From Dictyostelium discoideum (taxonomy: Eukaryota): DNA of 64,000 nt. Shown here one piece after another: positions 446-64,000 of this stretch. The notes beneath the pieces are model-generated. The model was not told the DNA's origin, searched no databases, and saw only the letters and a list, made by a program, of their open reading frames with translations. A program made the position numbers and the translations under genes. Position 1 is the first letter of the stretch; each line of letters begins with the position of its first letter. The DNA lies in contig CM000153.2 in the NCBI GenBank assembly GCA_000004695.1, positions 896,001-960,000 on the forward strand, in the 5' to 3' direction.

Positions 446-1095
446 TTTTTATTGGTCAAATCAAATTCCTCTTTTTTTTTACATTCCAACAATACATTTT
501 AAAAACAAAAAAAAAAAATCTAAAAATATCTCTCAACTTTTGATTTTTGAAATTTTTTTTATATTTTTTTTATTTTTTAATTTTTTTTTTTGTTTTTTTT
601 TTCTTTTACCTTTTCTTCACCAAAATAACCAATCCATTATATTAAAAAAACAATGTTTAACTTTTCATTTCAACAAATTTCAACACCAAATACTTTTCAA
701 GTAGAAATCGTTCCATCAAAGGGTGGCTCAGCTCAAAATTGTGGTGGAAAAGGTGGTCTTTTGGGTGAGTCATTTACAAAAAAAAAAAAAAAAAAATAAT
801 AATAATAATAATAATATAATCTGACCCTTTTTTTTATTTTTATATTAATTTTCATTAGCATCAAGAGGCTCATTTAGACTTTAAAGTAATCTAAAAAGAT
901 TATTAAAAAAATAAATAAACTATTTTTTCAATATTTTTGGTTTTTTTTTTTTTTTTTTTTTTGTTTTTAACTCTAAAAATAATTTGTGGGATTGATTGTC
1001 CAAAGAATTCTTAAAAAATTTCCAAATTGTATTTTCAAACTTTTTTTTATATTTTTATTCTCAATTTTTTTTTTTTTTTTTTTTCAAAAACTTTT

Positions 1096-1545
1096 AATTG
1101 ACTTAAAATTTGATTAATAAATTTAATTTAAATATACTTCAATGGGCATATCAGGACATCGAGTTTAAAAACTATTCAGACTCCAGAATACAAATTAATT
1201 TTAGCGGCAACGTTCATATCAATCTGCACTTCATATAATTAGAGGAATGATTGAAAAATCAAACATCTAAAGGTTTAAAAAAATGTTGAGAAGTAACAGC
1301 ATTAAAGAAACATTTAGACTATAGTTGAGAGTCTTTAAACCCAACCAGTTAGTAGGGACTAAAAATCCACTAAACCATAAACTCGATCCGATACTTGAAA
1401 TACCTTTTTTTTTTTTAATGATAATGGTAATGGGGTAAAATAATAATTACAACAAAAACAATATTGTATCGGACCCACTTGCAATAAAAGAAGTTTCTGA
1501 AGAAAAAAAAAAAATAAAAATTATAATAAAAATAAACAATATAAA
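1096..1545. repeat. Interspersed repeat copy (family A), about 450 bp, non-coding; second copy at 61440-61900
   Basis: About 85% identical over about 450 nt to 61440-61900 in the same orientation (for example GGGCATATCAGGACATCGAGTTTAAAA, CTGAGAAGTAACAGCATTAAA, CCAACCAGTTAGTAG). Minus-strand reading frames differ between copies (frameshifts), so it is unlikely to be coding. Shorter fragments are at 8630-8700 and 5385-5410. Confidence 0.6.
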
Positions 1546-1817
1546 AGAATAGAAAATTTGTGATAAAATTAAAAAATAATTTAATTAATAATAATAATAT
1601 TTACATCAAATTATTATTACTATATTAATATATATTTATAAATGTATTTATTAATATTTATTTTAATTATTTAATAAAAAAAACAAAAAATGATTAAAGA
1701 ATTTGGATAATGGAAAATGAAGGAAATTTTGAATATTTATTTAATTTTTTTTTTTAATGTACCAAACTTTAAAACCTAAAAAAATAAGATTAATGTGGTA
1801 TTATGTCCCAAGAGAAT

Positions 1818-2626
1818 TTAACAATTTGGACCTCTTGCAGAAAGCATTGTTGCGTAATCAATTCTTCTTTTTTTGAACCACTATAAAAAAAGAATTAAAA
1901 ATAAATAAAAAATTATTAATACTTTTTATAGTTGATATTAAAAAAAAAAAAAACAAAGTTATAACTTACTTCTTGTAATTCATTTACGGAAACACATCCA
2001 TCTTTATCCAAGTCAATAATTTTAAGGTATTGATCACGATCAGAGTATGGAGTATAGCCACGTCCTTTAAAGTATTCAAGAAATTCTGTTTGGCTTAATT
2101 TTTTATCCTTATCTTTAATTTTTTTAAAAAAAATAAAAAAAAAAAAAAAAAGTAAATTTTAGCATATATTTCAAATCACATTAATCTTACTTTAAATAAA
2201 GTATAATATTATTATAAAAGATCTATTTTACCTTTATCAAATCTTAATAACATAGCTTCTACATCAGCCAATGCAGCAATCTCAGCATTTTGTTCAATTT
2301 GTTTTTTTGCCTTGTCTACACAATACTTAGCAATTTCACAATAAGTGAATTTACCATCATGGTCCATATCAATTGTTGAACACAAAACACCAGTTGCCTG
2401 TGATGCCTTATAAACATCACCATTCATTTCTATTTTAATATTTAATAATAAAAACTGTAAGTATAATTATTTTAATGCTTATATTCTTTTGTTGTGGTTT
2501 TTTCAATATTTTACTTTTTAAAAATGATAGATATATATCATATGAAGTTACACTGCCATCCTTATTTAAGTCATAATTTTGGACAAAATTTTGAACTTCT
2601 TCAAAAATTTTACGATTATTGTTCAT
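1818..2626 (-). CDS. EF-hand calcium-binding protein (Dictyostelium CBP-family-like), tandem copy 1; 4 exons: 2515..2626, 2232..2429, 1970..2112, 1818..1880 (171 aa)
   Basis: ATG at 2624-2626 (minus strand). Exon 1 ends SFLK+a at a GTAAAA donor; the acceptor AAAATAG lies immediately before AAATGAATGG. Exon 2 carries the EF-hand loop [16 protein letters not shown] and ends GATAAAG|GTAAAA. Exon 3 encodes [48 protein letters not shown] with donor CAAGAA|GTAAGT. Exon 4 encodes [20 protein letters not shown]. The exon lengths and phases (112/198/143/63 nt) are reproduced in all four paralogs. Exon 4 has in-frame 15-nt length variation between copies, which supports it being coding. Confidence 0.7.
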
Positions 2627-2896
2627 TGTAATATAAAAATATGTAAATTTTTACTTCTTTGTACAAAAATAAAAGAGAATTTGAATAATGAAATTTTAAT
2701 TTCAAAAAATTATTCTTTTTATTTTTTGTATTGATTTTATTAAAAAAAAAAAAAAAAATAATTATAATAATAATTTTTTTTTTTTTTTTTTAATTTTAAT
2801 TAAACCAATTGGGTGTTTTCAAATATAATCAGGTGTTGATTTAATAAAAAGTAGGGGTGTGGGAATCAACACAGACTTACAAAAAAATTTAAATTT

Positions 2897-2960
2897 AGTG
2901 ATTTAACACAGACTTACAAAAAAAACTTTTTTTTTTGTAGGTCTGTGTTAAATCACTAGA
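2897..2960. promoter_or_regulatory. Near-perfect 28-bp inverted repeat (GTGATTTAACACAGACTTACAAAAAAAA / TTTTTTTTGTAGGTCTGTGTTAAATCAC) plus a direct repeat ACACAGACTTACAAAAAAA x2, about 300 bp upstream of cbp copy 1
   Basis: Seen directly. The half-site GTCTGTGTTAAATCAC(A/T)A(G)AAAATCACATTC is conserved upstream of all four cbp copies (about 4415-4455, 6785-6825, 10060-10090). The flanking block GGTAAATATTCTGACTTAACCATTTATATTATCCA(A/C)CTGTT is also conserved (3020-3070, 4520-4570, 6870-6920). Confidence 0.4.
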
Positions 2961-3084
2961 AAATCACATTCTCCCACACACCACCTTTTTTTTTAAATTT
3001 TTTATTAATAATAAAAATTAATGGTAAATATTATGACTTAACCATTTATATTATCCAACTGTTTATTAATTTTTGAAATGTTAC

Positions 3085-3115
<31 letters not shown>

Positions 3116-3344
3116 ATTAAAAATTAAAATTAAACAATTATTATTAATTGAATTGAAACATTATTGGGGATATTAAGAAAATAGAGGGGTTGCATAAAAA
3201 CCAATAGAGCTTCCTTAAAATAAATATAATTAATAACTTCATTTAAAGAAATTGAATATTTATTTAATTTTTTTTTTTTTTTTATGTACCAAACTTTAAA
3301 ACCTTATAAAATAAGATTAATGTGGTATTATGTCCCAAGAGAAT

Positions 3345-4163
3345 TTAACAATTTGGACCTCTTGCAGAAACCATTCTTGCGTAATCAATTCTTCTTTTTT
3401 TGAACCACTATAAAAAAGAATTAAAAATAAACAAAAAAAAATTAATACTTTTTATAGTTGATATTAAAAAAAAACAAAAACAAAGTTATAACTTACTTCT
3501 TGTAATTCATTTGCAGAAACACATCCGTCTTTATCCAAGTCAATAATTTTAAGAACTTGATCACGATCAGAGTATGGAGTATGGCCATTTCCCTTAAAGT
3601 ATTCAACAAATTCTGTTTTGGTTAATTTTTTATCCTTATCTTTTATTATTTTTTAAAAAAAAAAATAATAAAAAAAAAAAAAAAAGTAAATTTTAGTATA
3701 TATAAATCACATTAATCCTATATTAATAAAGTAAAATATTATTAAAGATCTTTTATACCTTTATCAAATCTTAATAACATAGCTTCAACATCAGCCAATG
3801 CAGCAATCTCAGCATTTTGTTCAACATTTTTTTTTGCCTCGTCTGCACAATACTTAGCAATTTCTTGATATGTGAATTTACCATCATGGTCCATATCAAC
3901 TGTTGAACACAAAACACCAGCTGCCTGTGATGCCTTAAAAATATCACCGTCCATTTCTTTTTTAATATTTAATAATAAAAACTGTTAGTATAATTATATT
4001 AATCCAATATTCTTTTGTTGTGGTTTTTTTTCAATACTTTACTTTTTAAAAATGATCGATATATATCAAATGAAGTTACACTGCCATCCTTATTTAAGTC
4101 ATAGTTTTTGACAAATTTTTGAACTTCTTGAAAAATTTTATCATTATCACTATTAGTACTCAT
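3345..4163 (-). CDS. EF-hand calcium-binding protein, tandem copy 2; exons 4043..4163, 3759..3956, 3497..3639, 3345..3407
   Basis: Same 4-exon architecture as copy 1. Exon 1 encodes [40 protein letters not shown]; exon 2 encodes [35 protein letters not shown]...FDKG. Exon 3 is 143 nt. Exon 4 encodes [20 protein letters not shown]. Confidence 0.65.
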
Positions 4164-4573
4164 TGTAATTTAAAAATATGTAAATATTTACCACAAAGAT
4201 AAAAGAGAATTTGAAAAATAAAATTTTAATTTCAAAAAATTAGTCATTTAATACTTTTTTTTTTTTTATTGACCTGTGATAATAAAATAATTTAATTAAA
4301 AATAATAATAATAATAATAATTTTTTTTATTTTTTTTTAATTTAAATTGGGTGTTTACAAATATAACTGTTGATTTGAGAATGAAGCGAGTTCACACATT
4401 AAATTTTTTTTTTTTTTGAAAGTCTGTGTTAAATCACAAAAAAATCACATTCTCCCCCCCCCCCTTTTTTTTTAATTAATAATTAATAATTATTTATTAA
4501 TAATTAAATAAAAATTAGAGGTAAATATTCTGACTTAACCATTTATATTATCCACCTGTTCATTAATTTTTTT

Positions 4574-4625
<52 letters not shown>

Positions 4626-5029
4626 AAAAATAAAACAATTATTATAAATTTAATTGAAACATTATTGGGAGATTTAGAAAATAGTGGGGTTGTATAGAAC
4701 TTCGTTTAAAAAAAATTAATAATTTAATTTTCATTATAATTTTTTATTTCCAAAATTAGTTTTATTAGAAATTATTTATACTCTTAAGAAATTAGTATAT
4801 TATTTAATTATTCTCTTTTAGCGATAACTGTCAACACATTTTAAATAGTATAAAATAAAAATTAAAAATTTTATTATTTTCAGCTTTTATGATGATTAAA
4901 AAATATATTATATTATATAAAAGAAAAAAAAAAGAAAATAATAAAAATTAAAATTAAATAAAATAAATAAAATTATCAAAGTTAAATAATTAAAATAAAA
5001 TATAATATTACGATATTAATTTGTTATTT

Positions 5030-5350
5030 GAACTAATCCAAACAATGTACCCATTTGATAGAATGGAGCTAAACCTATGTTTTGATTTTATAATGGACCT
5101 AAACCTGTGAAAATTGGTTTATACATCTTGTGATCAAGTGAAAGGAGTGGCAAATCTGATGATGTATTTATAGGCTGGTTTAAATTGATCTGGAATTGTT
5201 GATTCACAATCACCACCAAGTGGAACATCTTCAAATTAATTATAATTATTCTTATCATCGGTATTTTTACTATAATTATTGCTATGAATTTTATTATTAT
5301 TATTATTATTATAAATTCATTTTATTGATTTTATATATTTGAGATGCTTA
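5030..5350. repeat. Interspersed repeat (family B) fragment
   Basis: Shares GTACCCATTTGATAGAATGGAGCTAAACCTA...CTGTGAAA...ATCTTGTGATCAA(A/G)TGAAAG(A/G)A(A/G)TGG..AATCTGATGATGTATT and GCTATGAATTTTAT...TTTGAGATG(C/G)TTATTATT with 8195-8360 and 11225-11400, in permuted order. Confidence 0.5.
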
Positions 5351-5405
5351 TTATTATTATTATTATTATTATTATATCTGCTTGTAATAAAAGAAGTTTT
5401 ACAAG

Positions 5406-5441
<36 letters not shown>

Positions 5442-5730
5442 ATTATTATTATTATTACCATTAACCGATTTAATAAAATTCATCATTCTAGTAAATTTGT
5501 GATAAAATTAAACAATAATTTTATCAATAAAAATAATAATTACATCAAATTACTATTACGATATTAATATTTATTTAAAATTTAATAAAAAAATAAATAA
5601 AAATTAAAAAAAATATAGAATTTGGATTTTGGACAATGGAAATTGAATATTTATTTAATTTTTATTTTTTTGTACCAAATTTAAAAACCTTAAAAAATAA
5701 GATTAATGTGGTATTTTGTCCCAAGAGAAT

Positions 5731-6526
5731 TTAACAAATTGGACCTCTTGCATAAGCCAATCTTTTTTGTTTGAACCACTATAAAAAAAGAATTAAAAAT
5801 AAAAAAAAAACAATTAATACTTTTAAAAGTTGATATTAAAAAAAACAAAAAACAACGTTATAACTTACTTCTTGTAATTCACTTGCGGAAACATATCCAT
5901 CTTTATCCAAATCAATAATTTTAAGAACATAATCAGGGTCAGAGTATGGATTATAGCCCTGTTCTTTAAAGAATTTAACAAATTCTGTTTTGTTTAATTT
6001 TTTATCCTTATCTTAAAAATAAAAAAAAAAAAAAAAAGTTAATTTTAGTATATATATTTAAAATTACGTTAATCTTAATTTTAATAAAGTAAAATATTAT
6101 TATAAAAGATCTTTTTTACCTTTATCAAGTCTTAATAACAATGCTTCGACATCAGCCAATGCAGCAGTCTCAGCATTTTGTTCAATTTGTTTTTTTGCCT
6201 GGTCTGCACAATATTTAGAAATTTCATAATAACTGAATTTACCATCATTGTCCATATCAACTGTTGAACATAAAACACCAGCTGCCTGTGATGCCTTTAA
6301 ACTATCACCATTCATTTCTTTTTTAATATTTTATAATAAAAAAAATGTTAGTATAATTTTATTAATGTCGATATTCTTTTGTTGTGGTTTTTTTCAATAT
6401 TTTACTTTTTAAAAATGATTGATATATTTCAGATGAAGTTACACTGTAATCCTTATTTAAGTCATAATCTTGGATAAAATTTTGAATATCTTGAAAAATT
6501 TTACTATTATCACCACAAGTGCTCAT
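5731..6526 (-). CDS. EF-hand calcium-binding protein, tandem copy 3; exons 6406..6526, 6120..6317, 5869..6011, 5731..5778
   Basis: Exon 1 encodes [40 protein letters not shown], with Gly to Tyr at EF-loop position 6. Exon 2 encodes [35 protein letters not shown]. Exon 4 is shortened in frame to 48 nt ([15 protein letters not shown]). Confidence 0.6.
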
Positions 6527-7774
6527 TGTAATTTTAAAAATATGTAAATTTTTACTACTTTGTACAAAAATAAAAGAGAATTTGAATAATAAAATTTTAA
6601 TTTCAAAATATTAGTCTTTTTATACTTTTTTTATTGATTTGTGATAATAAAATAATTAATTTATTAAAAAAAAATAATAATAATAATTTTTAGAAACAAT
6701 TTGATTATTTGAAAATTGGGTGTTTACAAATATAACCAACTGTTGATAATGAAGCAAGTTCAGTCATTAAATTTTTTTTTTTTGAAAGTCTGTGTTAAAT
6801 CACAAAAAATCACATTCCCCCACCCCATTTTTTTTAATTTTAATAAATAATAAAAATAAAAATTAGTGGTAAATATTCTGACATAGCCATTTATATTATC
6901 CAACTGTTTATTAATTTTTTTGAAATGTAAAAAAAAAAAAAAAAAAAAAAAAAAATTAAAAATAAAATAATTATTAATTGAACCATTATTGGGGAGATTT
7001 AGAAAATAGTGGGGTTGTAAAAAAACCAATAGAACTTTGCCACAATAATTATTTCCAAAATTAATTTTATTAAAATTATTTATACTCTCAAGAAATCAGT
7101 AAATTATTTTAATCATTCGATTTTAGCGATAACTGTTAACATTTTAAATAGTATAAAATAAAAATTAAAATTTTATTATTTTTAGTTTTTATGATGATTA
7201 GACAATATATTAAAAAAAATTATAATTATAAAAAATAAAATAAATAAATAAAAATTAAAACTGAATAAAATAAATAAAATAAATTATAATATTTAAAATG
7301 GTACCTTTGAATTGACCAGACATACAGACGAAAATATCAGCCTAAAAATAGATGGTCTATGAATACCAAAATTAACAAGGTAGCCGAAATTAATGAGATA
7401 AAATTAGCATGATACCTATGTCTGCAAAAAATTAATATTGGTCCTGAAAATTACGATATTAATTTTGGCATGGGACAGACAGATACCTCATCCAATCATT
7501 TATAAAATCAATTGGATTCATTTTTGAATTTATTGAATTGATTTGACATCATCCGTGTAGTCTTCTTTAGACTAACTTGTTTACAATAATCTGGAATAAC
7601 TATTTGAACATAATATGATCCTGCTACTTGATCTTTTAATGTGTATCATTCTCATCTGTGGCAAGATATTCAATTTGGTGATGTAACTGATTTGTACACA
7701 ACCTGATAATAATGTTTTATCACATTGTTATTCTTATAGATCATTAGGAGTGTTTATACTATGAAACCTGGATT

Positions 7775-8037
7775 CACGGGAAAAAATTTTTTTAGAACAT
7801 TCATTATTTTTTGAGATATTTTATGACATGTAATTTCTCACTTTTTAAAAAGAGAAATTATAATTTAATAAAATTTTTAACAAATTAATATTAAATATTA
7901 ATTAATAATATATCACATGTTAATATAAAATTATCATTAAATAATAAAAAAAGAATTAATATGAAAAATGACATTTATAAATTTTTTAAATTTTTAATTA
8001 ATTTTATTTTATTTTGTTAGCTTTTTTTTTCCCCGTG
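7775..8037. mobile_element. 263-bp MITE-like non-autonomous element with terminal inverted repeats CACGGGAAAAAA / TTTTTTTCCCCGTG; the insertion site is empty in the paralogous repeat copy at 11090/11091
   Basis: The filled site reads ..CCTGGATT[CACGGG...CCCGTG]TTGACATCAG. The empty site at 11081-11098 reads ..CCTGGATTGACGTCAG. An internal partial copy lies at 16043-16250 (GAAATTATAATTTAATAAAATTTTTAACAAA...), with a diverged left end TTCACCAGAGAAAAAAAC. Confidence 0.5.
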
Positions 8038-8350
8038 TTGACATCAGTTCTATCAATTGTTTGTGGTCGTCCGGTAAATGTCATACAATGGTTACAACCA
8101 TTATTAACAAAGAGATTATCTACACTGTTGGTTTATGTAATTGATACATCTGATTTACCCCAATACCACTTCAGGTTTTTTCTTAATTAATGCTATGAAT
8201 TTTATAATTATTATTACTATTAATTCTTTTTGTTGATTTTATAAATTTGAGATGGTTATTATTATAATTATAATTAATAAAATGATTTCTAAATAATGTG
8301 ATAAAGTGAAAGAAATGGTGAATCTGATGATGTATTCAAAGATCACTTTG

Positions 8351-8394
<44 letters not shown>

Positions 8395-8525
8395 CAATGC
8401 TAATTTTATCAAATTTATTACAGCCTGCTAATTTTATCATATTATTTTAAGCCTTAAAACAGGTGGTATGTGTGGGCTGAAACTATTAAACCTGCTGTAA
8501 TTAATATAATAAAATTAGAAAGGGA
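8395..8525. repeat. Palindromic (hairpin-forming) element of about 130 bp, copy 1
   Basis: CAATGCTAATTTTATCAAATTTATTACAGCC...GCTGTAATTAATATAATAAAATTAGAAAGGG. The ends are reverse complements of each other. The paralogous copy is at 11412-11545. Confidence 0.45.
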
Positions 8526-8973
8526 TACATCTTCTCCAAAAGAAATAATATATCATATGTCATAAAAAAAAAAAAAAAAAAATTATTTTTTTATTGTTTT
8601 TATAAGAGAAGTGTATGGGAAAAATCAAACTCTGATGGTTAAAAATGCTGAGAAGTAACAGGATTAAAAAAAAGTTTAACGAGAAAAAAAAAAAAAAAAA
8701 AAATATAATAATATATAATAACAATATAAAATAATAGTAAATTTGTGATAAAATTATACAATAATAATAAATAATATTTACATCAAATTATTATTACGAT
8801 ATTAATATTTATTAACAATGTATTTATTAATATTTATTTTAATTTTTTAATAAAAAAAAAACAAAAAATGATTTTAGATTTTGGATAATGGAAATTGAAT
8901 ATTTATTTAATTTTTTTTTTTTTATGTACCAAACCTTAAAAAAAAGATTAATGTGGTATTATGTCCCAAGTTT

Positions 8974-9076
8974 TTTAACAATGTGGACGGCTTGCATAAT
9001 CAATTCTTTTTTTTTTGAACCACTAAAAAAAGGATTAAAAATAGAAAAAAATAAAAAATTAATACTTTTTATAATT

Positions 9077-9116
<40 letters not shown>

Positions 9117-9779
9117 AATGATATAACTTACTTCTTGTAATTCATTTGCGGAAACACATCCATCTTTATCCAAATCAATAATTTTAAGAACATAATCACG
9201 ATCAGAGTATGGGGTATCTGTTCCTCCTTTGAAGTATTCAACAAATTCTGTTTTGTTTAATTTTCTATCCTTATCTTTTATTATTTATTAAAAAAAAAAA
9301 AAAAGTAAATTTCAATATATTTAAAATCACATTAATCTTATTTTAAATAAAGTATAATATTATTATATAAGATCTATTTTTACCTTTATCAAATCTTAAT
9401 AAAAAAGCTTCAACATCAGCCAATGCAGCAATATCAGCATTTTGTTCAATTAGTTTTTTTGCATTGTCAGCACAATATTTAGCAATTTCATGATAACTGA
9501 ATTTACCATCTTTGTTTATATCAATTGTTGAACATAAAACACCAGTTGCTTTTGATGCCTCATAAGAATTGCCATTCATTTCTTTTTTTAAAATTTAATA
9601 ATAAAAACTGTTAGTATAATTTTATTAATGTCAATAATCTTTTGTAGTGGGTTTTTCAATATTTTACTTTTTAGAAGTGAATAATATATTTCTTGTGAAG
9701 TTAATACGCCATCTTGATTTAAGTCATAACCCTTGGCAAATTTTTGAACTTCTTGATAAATTTCATTATTAGTTAACAT
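8974..9779 (-). CDS. EF-hand calcium-binding protein, tandem copy 4; exons 9668..9779, 9384..9581, 9132..9274, 8974..9021
   Basis: Exon 1 encodes [37 protein letters not shown]. Exon 2 encodes [35 protein letters not shown]. Exon 4 is [15 protein letters not shown] (48 nt, in frame). Confidence 0.6.
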
Positions 9780-24213: not shown

Positions 24214-24852
24214 AAAAAATTCAGTAAATTTAAAGATTTAAAAATAATTTTAAAAAAGATAACATACTATTTTCCCACCTAGACCCTCAATGCCACCATT
24301 ACCACCCATAAATTCTTTAATAAATATATTATTTGTTGAAGCATCTCTATCAGTCCAATCCCAATATGGTAAAGTAACAGATGGATCAATTGTTTGTAAT
24401 GCATTTTCAAATTTATTTAATAACATTCTATGCCATGATAAAAATGCTGGATTACCGTGACCTGGATCAACTTTTAATTTATTATTATTATAAACATCTA
24501 AATCTTTTTCATCATATTCAGATTTTCTAGCAAGTGAAACAGCACCCATATGTAATATTACAAATTGATCATAGACAGAGTATTTAGAATTGTTTGGATA
24601 TTTATTTTTTAAACCAACAATTGCAACAAGGAATTTATTTCTTTCTTCCTCACTTAAATGAGCAGCATTTTTTCTAACTCTTCTAAGATCATTATTTTGA
24701 TGACCAAAAGTTAATGGTGGTGGTGGTGCAAAAGCATCTTGAAGGGAAGAAGAGTCTGATGAAGATTCAGATTTTGCCAAGTTTGTTGGTAAATTTGGCT
24801 TATTCTTTTTAAAAATTGGTGAATTTGTAATTGAAGTTGAACCTTCTGACAT
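22296..24852 (-). CDS. Tyrosinase (type-3 copper polyphenol oxidase)-like protein, tandem copy A; exons 24268..24852 and 22296..24161 (816 aa)
   Basis: CuA site: HMGAVSLA...HGNPAFLSWHRMLL...LPYWDWT. CuB site: HNPTHDWYGYG...DPIFWLHHCNIDRLWADWQ. The intron runs GTATGT...TTTTAG (106 nt), with phase 0 on both sides. A C-terminal extension of about 350 aa rich in predicted beta-strands follows. Confidence 0.8.
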
Positions 24853-58932: not shown

Positions 58933-60651
<1,719 letters not shown>

Positions 60652-60789
60652 AAAATAAAATAAAATAAAAAAAAATAAACTAAAATAAATTAATTAATAA
60701 AATTAATTAATTAATTAAATAAATTAAAGTAATTATTAAATTTATTTATTATTTATTTTTTTCTTTTTCTTTTCTTTTTTATTTTGCCA

Positions 60790-60983
60790 GATCCCATATA
60801 AAGATTTTAAAAAAAAAAAAGACAGTTGACGGTAGTTTTTCTTATGAAATGACTGTAGGGTTTGCTGTAAGGTCAACTTAATTATGTGTTAACTTAAATG
60901 TTTTACACATTTGAAAAAAGATTAAAAAAATTAATTAATTAAGAAGTTTTGAATAAAAAAATAATTTTGTGGGATAGTTTTGA

Positions 60984-61018
<35 letters not shown>

Positions 61019-61882
61019 TTTTTTATTTTATAATTAAATTTTTCAAGAAATAATTAAGAATTTTTATTTATTTATTTATTTATTTATTTTTTTTTTTTTT
61101 AAACCAATTTTTCCCACCATTAATTACAAATTTATCAAAAAAATCAGATAGACTTGGAAATATTATTAATTGGAAAAAAAAAAAAGACAGTTGGTGAAGG
61201 ATCTCTTTGGATGCAGAGAGAGAGATAGAAATGCTCTAAGGTCAACTTAATTGTTTTGTTATTCCTTTTCACATAATCAAATAAAATTCAAATTTTGTTT
61301 TTTTTTTTTCAGAATTTATAAACAAAAAAATAATTTGTAGGAGCAACAATAAAACAAAACTTCAATTCTTAAAAAATTACCAAATATTCTATTTTTAAAA
61401 CTTTTTTTTTATTTTTTTTTTTTTCATTTTTTTTTTTTTCAATTACCCATAAAAAGTTTTAATTCACTTAAAATTTGATTAATAAATTAATTTTAAATAT
61501 ATATCAAATGGGCATATCAGGACATCGAGTTTAAAACCTATTCAGACTCCAGAATACAAATTAATTTGAGCGGCAACGTTCATATCAATCTGCACTAAAC
61601 AAATCATTAGAGGAATGATTGCAAAATCAAACCTCTGAAGGTTAAAAAAATGCTGAGAAGTAACAGCATTAAAAAAAACATTTAGACCATAGTTGAGAGT
61701 CTTAAAATCCAACCAGTTAGTAGAGACTAAAAATTTACAAAACCATAAACTCGATCTGATACCTGAAATGCCTTTTTTATTTTTTAAAATCTTAATGGTA
61801 ATGGAAATAGTGTGACATACCTTTTTACAACAACAATATTATATGATCAGAAACCTACTTACAATAAAAGAAATTTAATAAG

Positions 61883-61921
<39 letters not shown>

Positions 61922-62572
61922 ATAATAACCATAAACTATATAAAAATATAAAATAGAACTTTGCAATAAAACAACAATAATTTATCAATTATAGATAGTA
62001 TTTACATCAAATTATTATTACTAATATTTATTTATAAATTTATTATTAATATTTTAATTATATTTTTAATAATATTATTTATTATTTAGTCATTTAATTA
62101 TTAAATCTTATAAAATATTAAAAAAAACTTAAGTTTTATTTTTTATTTTTTATTTTAATATCGATTAATAAACATATAATCGCTCAAGATTTTTAAAATG
62201 AGAGGTAATGATGGTCATCCATAACAAACAATTAAAAAAAAGACAGTTGACGGAAGGTTTTCTTAGAATGAAGGAACTGTAAGATTTGCTGTAAGGTAAA
62301 CTTAAATGTTTTACACATTTAAAAAAGATAAATAAAATTAATTATTTAAGAAATTTTAAATAAAAAATAATTTTGTGGGATAGTGCCAACCAATAAAAAA
62401 AAAAAAAAAAAAAAAAAAACTCCATTCTCATTGTTTTATCAAAAAAATAATTAGGAATTTTTTTTTTTTTTTTTAATGATCTAGAAACTTATTTTTTTCA
62501 TCAATAATTACAATTTTACCTTTAATAAATTGGAAAATTAGATGATGGACTGGAGATATTATAAATAGAATA

Positions 62573-62603
<31 letters not shown>

Positions 62604-63188
62604 GTTCTGACAAATGATTTGATACCTGAAATGTCTTTTTTTATAATGACAAAAGAAATGGCATTTGTATTGGTAATGGTATTGGTAATGGTGTGACATT
62701 CATAATAAATATTAAAAAAATGACTTCAGAAACTTGCCAACTCTTTTTAATTATTTCCCAAAAATTATGAAAATTAAAATTTATAAACAAACTATTATAG
62801 TTTTTTTGCCTTAATGTCCAACCTCTGATTAATCAATAAAAAAAAAATAGAAACTTAGTTCCAATATAAGAAGTTTGAGGAGTGAAAAAAAATACATTTT
62901 GTTTTATTGTTTTTTTTTTTTTTTTTCAGAAATAAAAATTATTAATATTTCAGACCTGAAATATTAATATTTCAGACCTGACCATTCTTATATTGGATGG
63001 TTTCTTAGATTTTTAATTTTTTAAAGAATAAATAATTAATTTTTTTTTGATAAAATACACCACCTAGGCTTTTTAATGATATAAAAAGACAGTTGATGAA
63101 GGTTTCTTTGAATGTAAGGAAATTTTAGATTTGCTGTAAGGTCAACTTTAATGTTTTTCACATTTTCTTAAAATGGTTTAAACATACA

Positions 63189-63247
<59 letters not shown>

Positions 63248-64000
63248 ATAATAACCATAAACTATATAAAAATAATAGAACTTTGCGATAAAACAACAAT
63301 AATTTATCAATTATAGATAGTATTTACATCAAATTATTATTACTAATATTTTTTTATAAATTTATTATTAATATTTTAATTATATATTTATTTAAAAAAA
63401 TTAAAAAAATTATTTATTATTTAATCATTTAATTTTTTTAAATCTTATAAAATATTTAAAAAAAACTTGAGTTTTATTTTTAATTTTATATTTTTTTTAA
63501 TATCGGTTAATAAACATATTATGGCTCAAGATTTTAAAAATGAGAGGTAATGATGGTCATCCATAACAAACAATTAAAAAAAAAGACAGTTGACGGAAGG
63601 TTTTCTTAGAATGAAGGAACTGTAAGATTTGCTGTAGGGTCAACTTATTTATGTGTTAACTTAAATGTTTTACACATTTAAAAAAAGATAAATAAAATTA
63701 ATTATATAAGAAATTTAAAATAAAAAATAATTTTGTGGGATAGTTTCAACCAATAATAAAAAAAAAAATAACTCTTTTTTTTATATTCTTATTATATTAT
63801 CAAAAAAATTTGGAATTTTTTTTTTTTATTTTTTTTTTTAATTCCTAAAAACTTATTTTTTCGTCAATAATTACAATTTTTCTTTACTAAATTGGAAAAT
63901 TAAATGGTAGAGATATTATAAGTAGAAAAAAAAAAAAAAAAAGATAGCCAACAAAGCATTTAATACCTGAAATGTCTTTTTTTATAATGACAAAGGAAAT
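60790..64000. repeat. Complex repeat cluster: about 1.3 kb tandem unit (61910-63240 versus 63240-64000+), a copy of family-A repeat (61440-61900), cbp-array-flank-like AT blocks without coding exons (61960-62100, 63290-63430), and five copies of a ~95-nt hairpin unit
   Basis: The unit AAAGACAGTTGACGG(A/T)AGGTTTTCTTAGAATGAAGGAACTGTAAGATTTGCTGTAAGGTCAACTTAA...GTTTTACACATTT occurs at about 60818, 61185, 62239, 63087 and 63586. Three of these carry the extension ...AATAATTTTGTGGGATAGT. GATACCTGAAATG(T/C)CTTTTTT...AATGGTAATGG recurs at 61772, 62622 and 63966, and also at 1396. Confidence 0.55.

Follow-up and report, generated by a model that had tools for sequence, protein, structure and literature searches.

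The last 3.3 kb of a 64,000-nucleotide stretch of Dictyostelium discoideum chromosome 4 (contig CM000153.2, positions 896,001 to 960,000; hereafter the window) contains a unit of about 95 nt that occurs five times, and the question raised by this locus is whether these repeats are genes for small noncoding RNAs (ncRNAs) or a neutral satellite. An earlier note on the sequence had favored a small-ncRNA gene family over a neutral satellite, and this proposal is supported here by matches to the Rfam family RF01414 (Dicty_Class_I_RNA), by the Dictyostelium upstream sequence element (DUSE), and by published sequencing reads. We conclude, with a probability of about 97%, that the units are the known D. 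discoideum Class I RNA cluster, encoded on the minus strand and composed of four genes and one dead copy. This cluster is already fully known from Rfam, dictyBase, and the literature: the family has its Rfam entry, the genes have names, and both expression data and the phenotype of a knockout have been published, so that there is nothing new in it.

Identity and strand of the reiterated units

The five units were confirmed at positions ~60817-60912, 61183-61275, 62239-62318, 63085-63163, and 63582-63679 (units 1 to 5, respectively), a recurrence within the last 3 kb that lies far beyond chance. They have in common a core of about 60 nt with the form AAAGACAGTTGAC...GCTGTAAGGTCAACTTAA, and the cores show a GC content of 33 to 41%, compared to 18% in the surrounding intergenic DNA. 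The identity of 80 to 95% that was originally claimed for the units is too high, with the full ~95-nt units being 63 to 87% identical and unit 2 forming an outlier (64 to 70%).

Searching the whole 64-kb window with Rfam at the gathering threshold yielded exactly four matches, all of them to RF01414 and all on the minus strand (60877-60823, 62301-62244, 63146-63090, and 63644-63587), with scores of 45 to 48 bits (gathering score, 41.5 bits) and E-values of 2e-7 to 1e-6 for the 3.35-kb region, so that the covariance-model search proposed by the earlier note matches four of its units. The four matched sequences are identical to DdR-21, DdR-49, DdR-50, and DdR-51 in the curated set of Class I sequences that supplements Kjellin et al. 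2021 (PMC7919456), and their offset to the published GFF/BED coordinates on chromosome 4 (DDB0232431) is a constant 896000 for 4/4 genes. The window corresponds to DDB0232431 896001-960000 and holds the proximal part of the cluster of Class I RNA genes on chromosome 4, two further members of which, DdR-22 and DdR-52, are located just past the window end (PMC7919456). Unit 2 is the published unnamed candidate ddi_can_2 (957188-957246; PMC7919456). The view that all five units are genes does not hold, since only four are catalogued, with unit 2 being an unexpressed decayed copy and DdR-50 lacking a DUSE.

All units are found 3' of the stop codon (at 60651) of a 561-amino-acid phosphoglucose isomerase gene (58966-60651, plus strand; Pfam PGI, E = 3e-244) and are thus intergenic, as well as clustered (five within 2.9 kb). 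The AT-rich intergenic region that hosts them (18% GC) has no open reading frame (ORF) longer than 56 amino acids, and its short ORFs are not gene-like, with many TTG/GTG starts and low-complexity sequence.

With respect to orientation, the genes are read from the strand opposite to the one implied by the earlier note, in which AAAGACAG led the unit and AATAATTTTGTGGGATAGT trailed it. The reverse complements of GCTGTAAGG and TTGTGGGA are CCTTACAGC and TCCCACAA, respectively, and the other strand was therefore searched. On the minus strand, AAAGACAG reads CUGUCUUU, which is a CUGU 3' end followed by a T-run, and the leading block is consequently the 3' end with its terminator. AGTTGAC/GTCAACT forms the terminal stem, with AA in front of the invariant 5' G, GCTGTAAGG corresponds to the 11-nt motif CCTTACAGCAA, and GTTTTACACATTT is the TGTG box AAATGTG. 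The trailing AATAATTTTGTGGGATAGT, which had been seen correctly to continue three copies (units 1, 3, and 5), contains the DUSE. The block described as conserved behind the stem holds for most of the copies, with CACATTT following 4/5 units.

The RNAs of the four genes are 55 to 58 nt long with a GC content of 0.33 to 0.41, within the range of the family (~42 to 65 nt, 32 to 41% GC), and the AAG start and the CTGTC end are invariant alignment columns in 5/5 units. The single-stranded 11-nt motif, CCUUACAGCAA, adjoins the 5' half of the stem and is followed by a variable A/U-rich loop; it is exact in DdR-21, DdR-49, and DdR-50 and carries one mismatch in DdR-51 and two in unit 2. Pairing of the 6-bp terminal stem is 6/6 in DdR-21 and DdR-51, 5/6 in DdR-49 and DdR-50, and 4/6 in unit 2, so that the AGTTGAC...GTCAACT stem reported for all copies is perfect in units 1 and 5 and interrupted by one mismatch each in units 3 and 4 and by two in unit 2. 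T-runs are present directly 3' of CUGUC in DdR-21 and in units 2, 3, and 5, and the run is shorter in DdR-50 (TCTTTTTAT).

The promoter was searched with the patterns [AT]CCCA[CT]AA for the DUSE, which has a total of 13 matches over both strands of the window (128 kb), and AAATGTG for the TGTG box. In DdR-21, DdR-49, and DdR-51, the DUSE TCCCACAA precedes the TGTG box by 60 to 62 nt (start to start), the TGTG box is found 13 to 29 nt 5' of the RNA, and the DUSE lies 72 to 90 nt from the mature 5' end; the DUSE-TGTG and TGTG-RNA spacings agree with published values. The DUSE predicted at about 60 bp 5' of each copy is therefore present for three units, with the ~60 nt separating it from the TGTG box rather than from the RNA. 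Neither of the other two units has a DUSE, since DdR-50 shows only a TGTG box and the sequence in unit 2 is TCCTACAA, with AAATGTG missing as well. By chance, a strand-specific DUSE would occur in the correct slot for 3/5 units with a probability of ~1e-6.

State of the individual copies and weighing of alternatives

The expression evidence used throughout comes from the published tables of PMC7919456, which cover six libraries. In line with the transcription that the earlier note had expected from the units, these RNA sequencing (RNA-seq) data detect 4/5 of them, with the evidence for DdR-50 being weak, and Table S2 assigns a read-coverage flag of 1 to DdR-21, DdR-49, DdR-50, and DdR-51 (PMC7919456). 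All features of the copies given below are on the minus strand.

DdR-21 (60822-60877; Rfam, 45.4 bits; identical to chromosome 4 956823-956877) measures 55 nt to CUG plus the final U and has a perfect 6-bp stem (GUUGAC/GUCAAC) and the exact motif CCUUACAGCAA. A terminator-like T-run for RNA polymerase III (60809-60820) directly follows CUGUC, and upstream are a TGTG box (AAATGTG, 60906-60912; TGTG-box distance 29 and DUSE-to-TGTG distance 61 in Table S2/S3) and a DUSE (TCCCACAA, 60967-60974; published duse_dist 90). With 0.8 to 1.8 million reads per library, it is the top Class I RNA of the D. discoideum read-count table (PMC7919456). DdR-49 (62243-62301; 45.4 bits; identical to chromosome 4 958244-958301) has the exact motif and one stem mismatch (U.C at pair 4), with a TGTG box at 62314-62320 and the DUSE TCCCACAA at 62373-62380, and its reads, 209 to 2872 per library, climb in development (PMC7919456). 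DdR-51 (63586-63644; 45.1 bits; identical to chromosome 4 959587-959644) has a perfect stem and one motif change (CCCUACAGCAA), a TGTG box at 63673-63679, and the DUSE TCCCACAA at 63733-63740, and is represented by 1369 to 8213 reads per library (PMC7919456).

DdR-50 (63089-63146; 48.1 bits; identical to chromosome 4 959090-959146) combines the exact motif with one stem mismatch (C.A at pair 6) and a TGTG box at 63159-63165. It has no DUSE, a 52-nt homopolymer run (63194-63245; a T-run in the alignment) covering the DUSE columns; its published DUSE flag is 0, with 69 to 117 reads per library and a read-coverage flag of 1 (PMC7919456). Unit 2 (61187-61246; 59 nt, GC content of 0.44) shows the motif CCUUAGAGCAU, whose two mismatches include the near-invariant position 6, and a stem of 4/6 pairs, and at the homologous upstream position (61335-61342) it has a degenerate DUSE (TCCTACAA, one C>T; published duse_score 0.18). 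It falls under the Rfam gathering score, with no match even at an E-value of ≤10, and ddi_can_2 is listed with a covariance-model score of 27.1, a classifier score of 22.3 (threshold, 32), and zero reads in the six libraries (PMC7919456). Its mutated promoter element, the disruption of two stem pairs, and the lack of any reads make unit 2 a silent pseudogene in which DUSE, TGTG box, motif, and stem have all decayed. The state of the cluster is thus one intact gene (DdR-21), three impaired ones, and one pseudogene.

Several observations weigh against assigning the units to four Class I genes and a dead copy, and they concern the expression of DdR-50, the pattern of stem substitutions, and the folding of single copies. 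DdR-50 lacks a DUSE, yet it is catalogued as expressed. According to the literature, expressed Class I genes carry a DUSE, and high-scoring copies without one are silent. The ratio of DdR-50 reads to those of DdR-23, which differs by 2 nt, is constant at 1.7 to 2.4e-4 in all six libraries, and its expression call is therefore doubtful: the "expressed" flag may reflect mis-assigned reads, and DdR-50 may possibly be a silent gene. In that case, the sole DUSE-less expressed gene of the published table would disappear. Speaking against a silent DdR-50, D. firmibasis DfiR-12 is identical to it in sequence and is likewise DUSE-less upstream, on a contig that is, however, very short.

A wider form of this doubt is that only DdR-21 is functional at this locus, with DdR-49, DdR-50, and DdR-51 being decaying duplicates whose reads are leakage or are mis-assigned from the abundant paralogs DdR-26 and DdR-23. 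Each of the three indeed carries one stem or motif defect, they are 100 to 10,000 times rarer than DdR-21 even though two of them have the same DUSE and TGTG boxes, only one nucleotide separates each of DdR-49 and DdR-51 from DdR-26, and the constant DdR-50/DdR-23 ratio fits mis-assignment. The DdR-49/DdR-26 and DdR-51/DdR-26 ratios, however, reach 1 to 2.6% and shift 5- to 7-fold over development, which exceeds what sequencing error could produce, in size as well as in variability; DdR-49 and DdR-51 keep an intact DUSE and TGTG box; and DdR-50 has its identical counterpart in DfiR-12. We therefore regard a single functional gene as unlikely.

With respect to the stem, we observe zero compensatory changes among the five copies, which is the outcome that the earlier note had named as evidence against function, together with substitutions falling equally in stem and loop. 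The lack of compensatory changes is to be expected among young duplicates and is uninformative here, since covariation shows only across the whole family: in a set of 34 published D. discoideum sequences, pairing is kept at 198 of 204 stem cells, pairs 2 to 5 occur as CG, GC, or TA, and the literature reports that stem sequences differ while pairing is kept across 16 dictyostelid genomes. There is next to no chance that the units are a neutral AT-rich satellite or segmental duplication in which a foldable core is kept only through the youth of the copies. It is true that the copies lie within a young duplication of 1.33 kb (84% identity), one of them is dead, and, as described below, single-sequence folding is unexceptional; but the cores are islands of 33 to 41% GC in 18% GC DNA that match a curated covariance model, their promoter boxes are at fixed spacing, three copies yield thousands to millions of published reads, and the architecture is conserved across Dictyostelia, with stem covariation.

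Substitutions in the cluster are also awkward with respect to strand. In the 3' half of the stem, DdR-50 has one transition and unit 2 has two, all three of which would become G.U wobbles if the plus strand were transcribed, and pair-counting in this cluster alone would mildly favor the wrong strand. The odds of this coincidence are ~1 in 8, because any transition turns a Watson-Crick pair into a wobble on one of the two strands. When single copies are folded thermodynamically, the outcome is likewise unremarkable (z-scores of +0.3 to −1.9), and the minimum free energy (MFE) structures of DdR-49 and DdR-50 do not contain the terminal stem, so that single-sequence folding cannot separate Class I RNAs from shuffled sequences and is misleading if used alone. 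A plus-strand small RNA family, in which the stem closes a 45-nt loop and GTTTTACACATTT and AATAATTTTGTGGGATAGT are 3' elements, would keep the stems of units 2 and 4 paired through these wobbles and has lower MFE values in absolute terms (−8.6 to −12.3 kcal/mol), but it can be dismissed as exceedingly improbable, given that plus-strand z-scores are not significant, that Rfam matches the minus strand only, that the 11-nt motif, DUSE, TGTG box, AAG start, CUGU end, and T-run are correct only on the minus strand, that no plus-strand DUSE is found upstream of any of the five units, and that published genes, northern blots, and RNA-seq agree on the minus strand.

Duplication history and a structured block within the cluster

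The higher-order tandem of about 1.3 kb in which the earlier note had placed the copies is real. Copy 1 (61865-62659) carries DdR-49 with its promoter and is supported as well by the repeat families D15, D19, D13, and D16, and copy 2 (63193-64000), which runs past the window end, carries DdR-51 with its promoter; the two are 84% identical over 841 nt (blastn), with a period of ~1322 to 1342 nt, and 60813-61185 is a third copy of the same repeat (74%). For the RNA-coding parts alone, identity is 97% between DdR-49 and DdR-51 and 81% between DdR-21 and DdR-51. The cluster grew by local duplication, with the ~1.33-kb tandem duplication yielding DdR-49 and DdR-51, and the copies are decayed to differing degrees, from DdR-21, which is intact, to unit 2, which is silent. 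In the nonhomologous spacer between DdR-49 and DdR-50, we also observe an exact 22-nt tandem duplication (62940-62981; TATTAATATTTCAGACCTGAAA, two copies).

The AT block at 61899-62072 has further copies at 1500-1677, 5386-5587, and 8684-8853, next to an array of EF-hand-like ORFs, which bears out the homology to the flanks of a putative cbp (calcium-binding protein) array pointed out previously. That array (2212-9779, minus strand) is made up of short ORFs with EF-hand-like loops, arranged as pairs or singletons in at least four repeats, and is presumably the cbp gene array of the earlier note; Pfam searches of its single EF-hand-like exons gave no significant family. At the same end of the window, a DUSE (TCCCACAA) is found at 984-991 on the minus strand in a Class I promoter-like context (TCCCACAAATTATTTTT), with no relic Class I gene or other Rfam match downstream, and it may have served as the promoter of a copy that has since been lost. 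Elsewhere in the window, DUSE-matching octamers occur in pairs at 24304/27982 (plus strand) and 22357/26028 (minus strand), with near-identical sequence after each and a distance of ~3.7 kb, which indicates another tandem duplication; these pairs look coding and not like ncRNA promoters.

Between unit 2 and DdR-49, a block at 61510-61782 stands out from the 18% GC DNA with a GC content of 33%. It folds far better than its shuffles (z-scores of −6.0 on the plus strand and −4.1 on the minus strand), with a long helix joining its ends. A plus-strand DUSE (ACCCATAA, 61445-61452) is located ~60 nt ahead of it and a T-run follows it. The block coincides with a single-exon long noncoding RNA (lncRNA) annotated by Rosengarten et al. 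(PMC5295588) at chromosome 4 957505-957898 (window 61505-61898; DDB_G3971559) and is thus already transcribed and catalogued. From strand-specific libraries, this lncRNA was assigned to the minus strand (PMC5295588), and the plus-strand DUSE may be coincidental. We give only a slim chance to the block being an unrecognized DUSE-driven, T-run-terminated ncRNA gene on the plus strand that was co-duplicated with the Class I genes and with the EF-hand (cbp-like) array 60 kb away.

A paralog of the block and its flanks is found at 1086-1433 (plus strand, 90% identity), beside the EF-hand (cbp-like) exon array, and has a T-run at the position of the DUSE. The comparison is silent on selection, because the flanks are as conserved as the block, and it is equally uninformative on compensation in the terminal helix, whose 5' half does not vary. 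Short fragments of the same element are present at 8621-8673, 62616-62641, and 63957-63982 and recur in the Class I higher-order repeat. This suggests that the Class I and EF-hand arrays share an ancestral duplication unit.

Other identities for the block were considered and rejected. Rfam returned no family for it at any threshold, leaving zero support for signal recognition particle RNA, RNase P or MRP RNA, small nuclear RNA (snRNA), or U3. Its ends form an imperfect inverted repeat, as in a miniature inverted-repeat transposable element, but the homology to 1086-1433 extends equally into both flanks, so that element boundaries and target-site duplications are undefinable, and the literature on "thug" elements offered nothing usable for this reading. 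Across 60650-64000 and 1-2000, matches to other RNA families (Rfam, E ≤ 10) were at chance level only, such as IMES-2 (24 bits versus a gathering score of 54.7), mir-182, and SAM-II.

Function and relation to known systems

According to the literature, transcription of the Class I genes depends on the DUSE, and the RNAs are both plentiful and regulated during development. The T-run suggests RNA polymerase III, as was also inferred from it by the published authors (PMC7919456). DdR-21 directly binds Rnp1A, a protein with two RNA recognition motifs, and its disruption leads to fruiting bodies that are smaller and more numerous, such that it is needed for normal development (PMC7919456); deletion of the DdR-21 locus is reported to abolish the RNA signal (Avesson et al. 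2011, as cited in PMC7919456). As to the mode of action, the exposed 11-nt motif could base-pair with target RNAs, or the RNA could act as a sponge or partner of Rnp1A. We favor protein binding, as it is the only interaction that has been demonstrated.

Class I RNAs, which are very abundant, occur only in dictyostelid social amoebae and have been connected with aggregative multicellular development, and this locus contains the member, DdR-21, that was used in the knockout and protein-binding work. Its copies form a natural allelic series at one locus (intact, motif variant, stem mismatch, DUSE-less, and dead), with published abundances dropping from the first to the last of them, a gradation that could guide mutational studies of Class I RNA stability. 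The locus can also be seen as a positive control for genome scanning, in that a reader with access to the sequence only found a real functional small-RNA family and named the right tests.

With respect to known systems, the spliceosomal snRNA genes of Dictyostelium (U1, U2, U4, U5, and U6) also have an upstream DUSE at ~60 nt, but their RNA sequence and structure are unrelated and they have no TGTG box; at the gathering threshold, no snRNA family of Rfam matches anywhere in the 64-kb window. Near-identical Class I RNAs are found elsewhere in the genome, in the 1.66-Mb cluster of chromosome 4 (DdR-23, DdR-24, and DdR-26) and on DDB0232430 (DdR-25). Their promoter layout is shared with the window, and DdR-49 and DdR-51 are each 1 nt away from DdR-26 and DdR-50 is 2 nt away from DdR-23, whereas the copies in the window bear single changes through which a stem pair is lost or the motif altered and are 40 to 5,000 times rarer. 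Compared to the Dictyostelium Class I RNAs as a family (RF01414; Aspegren et al. 2004, Avesson et al. 2011, and Kjellin et al. 2021), the fifth unit differs in motif, stem, promoter, and expression, whereas the four genes match in sequence, coordinates, and strand, as well as in stem, motif, AAG start, CUGU end, clustering, GC content, and length, with the DUSE and TGTG-box promoter of the family being shared by DdR-21, DdR-49, and DdR-51 and its TGTG box alone by DdR-50.

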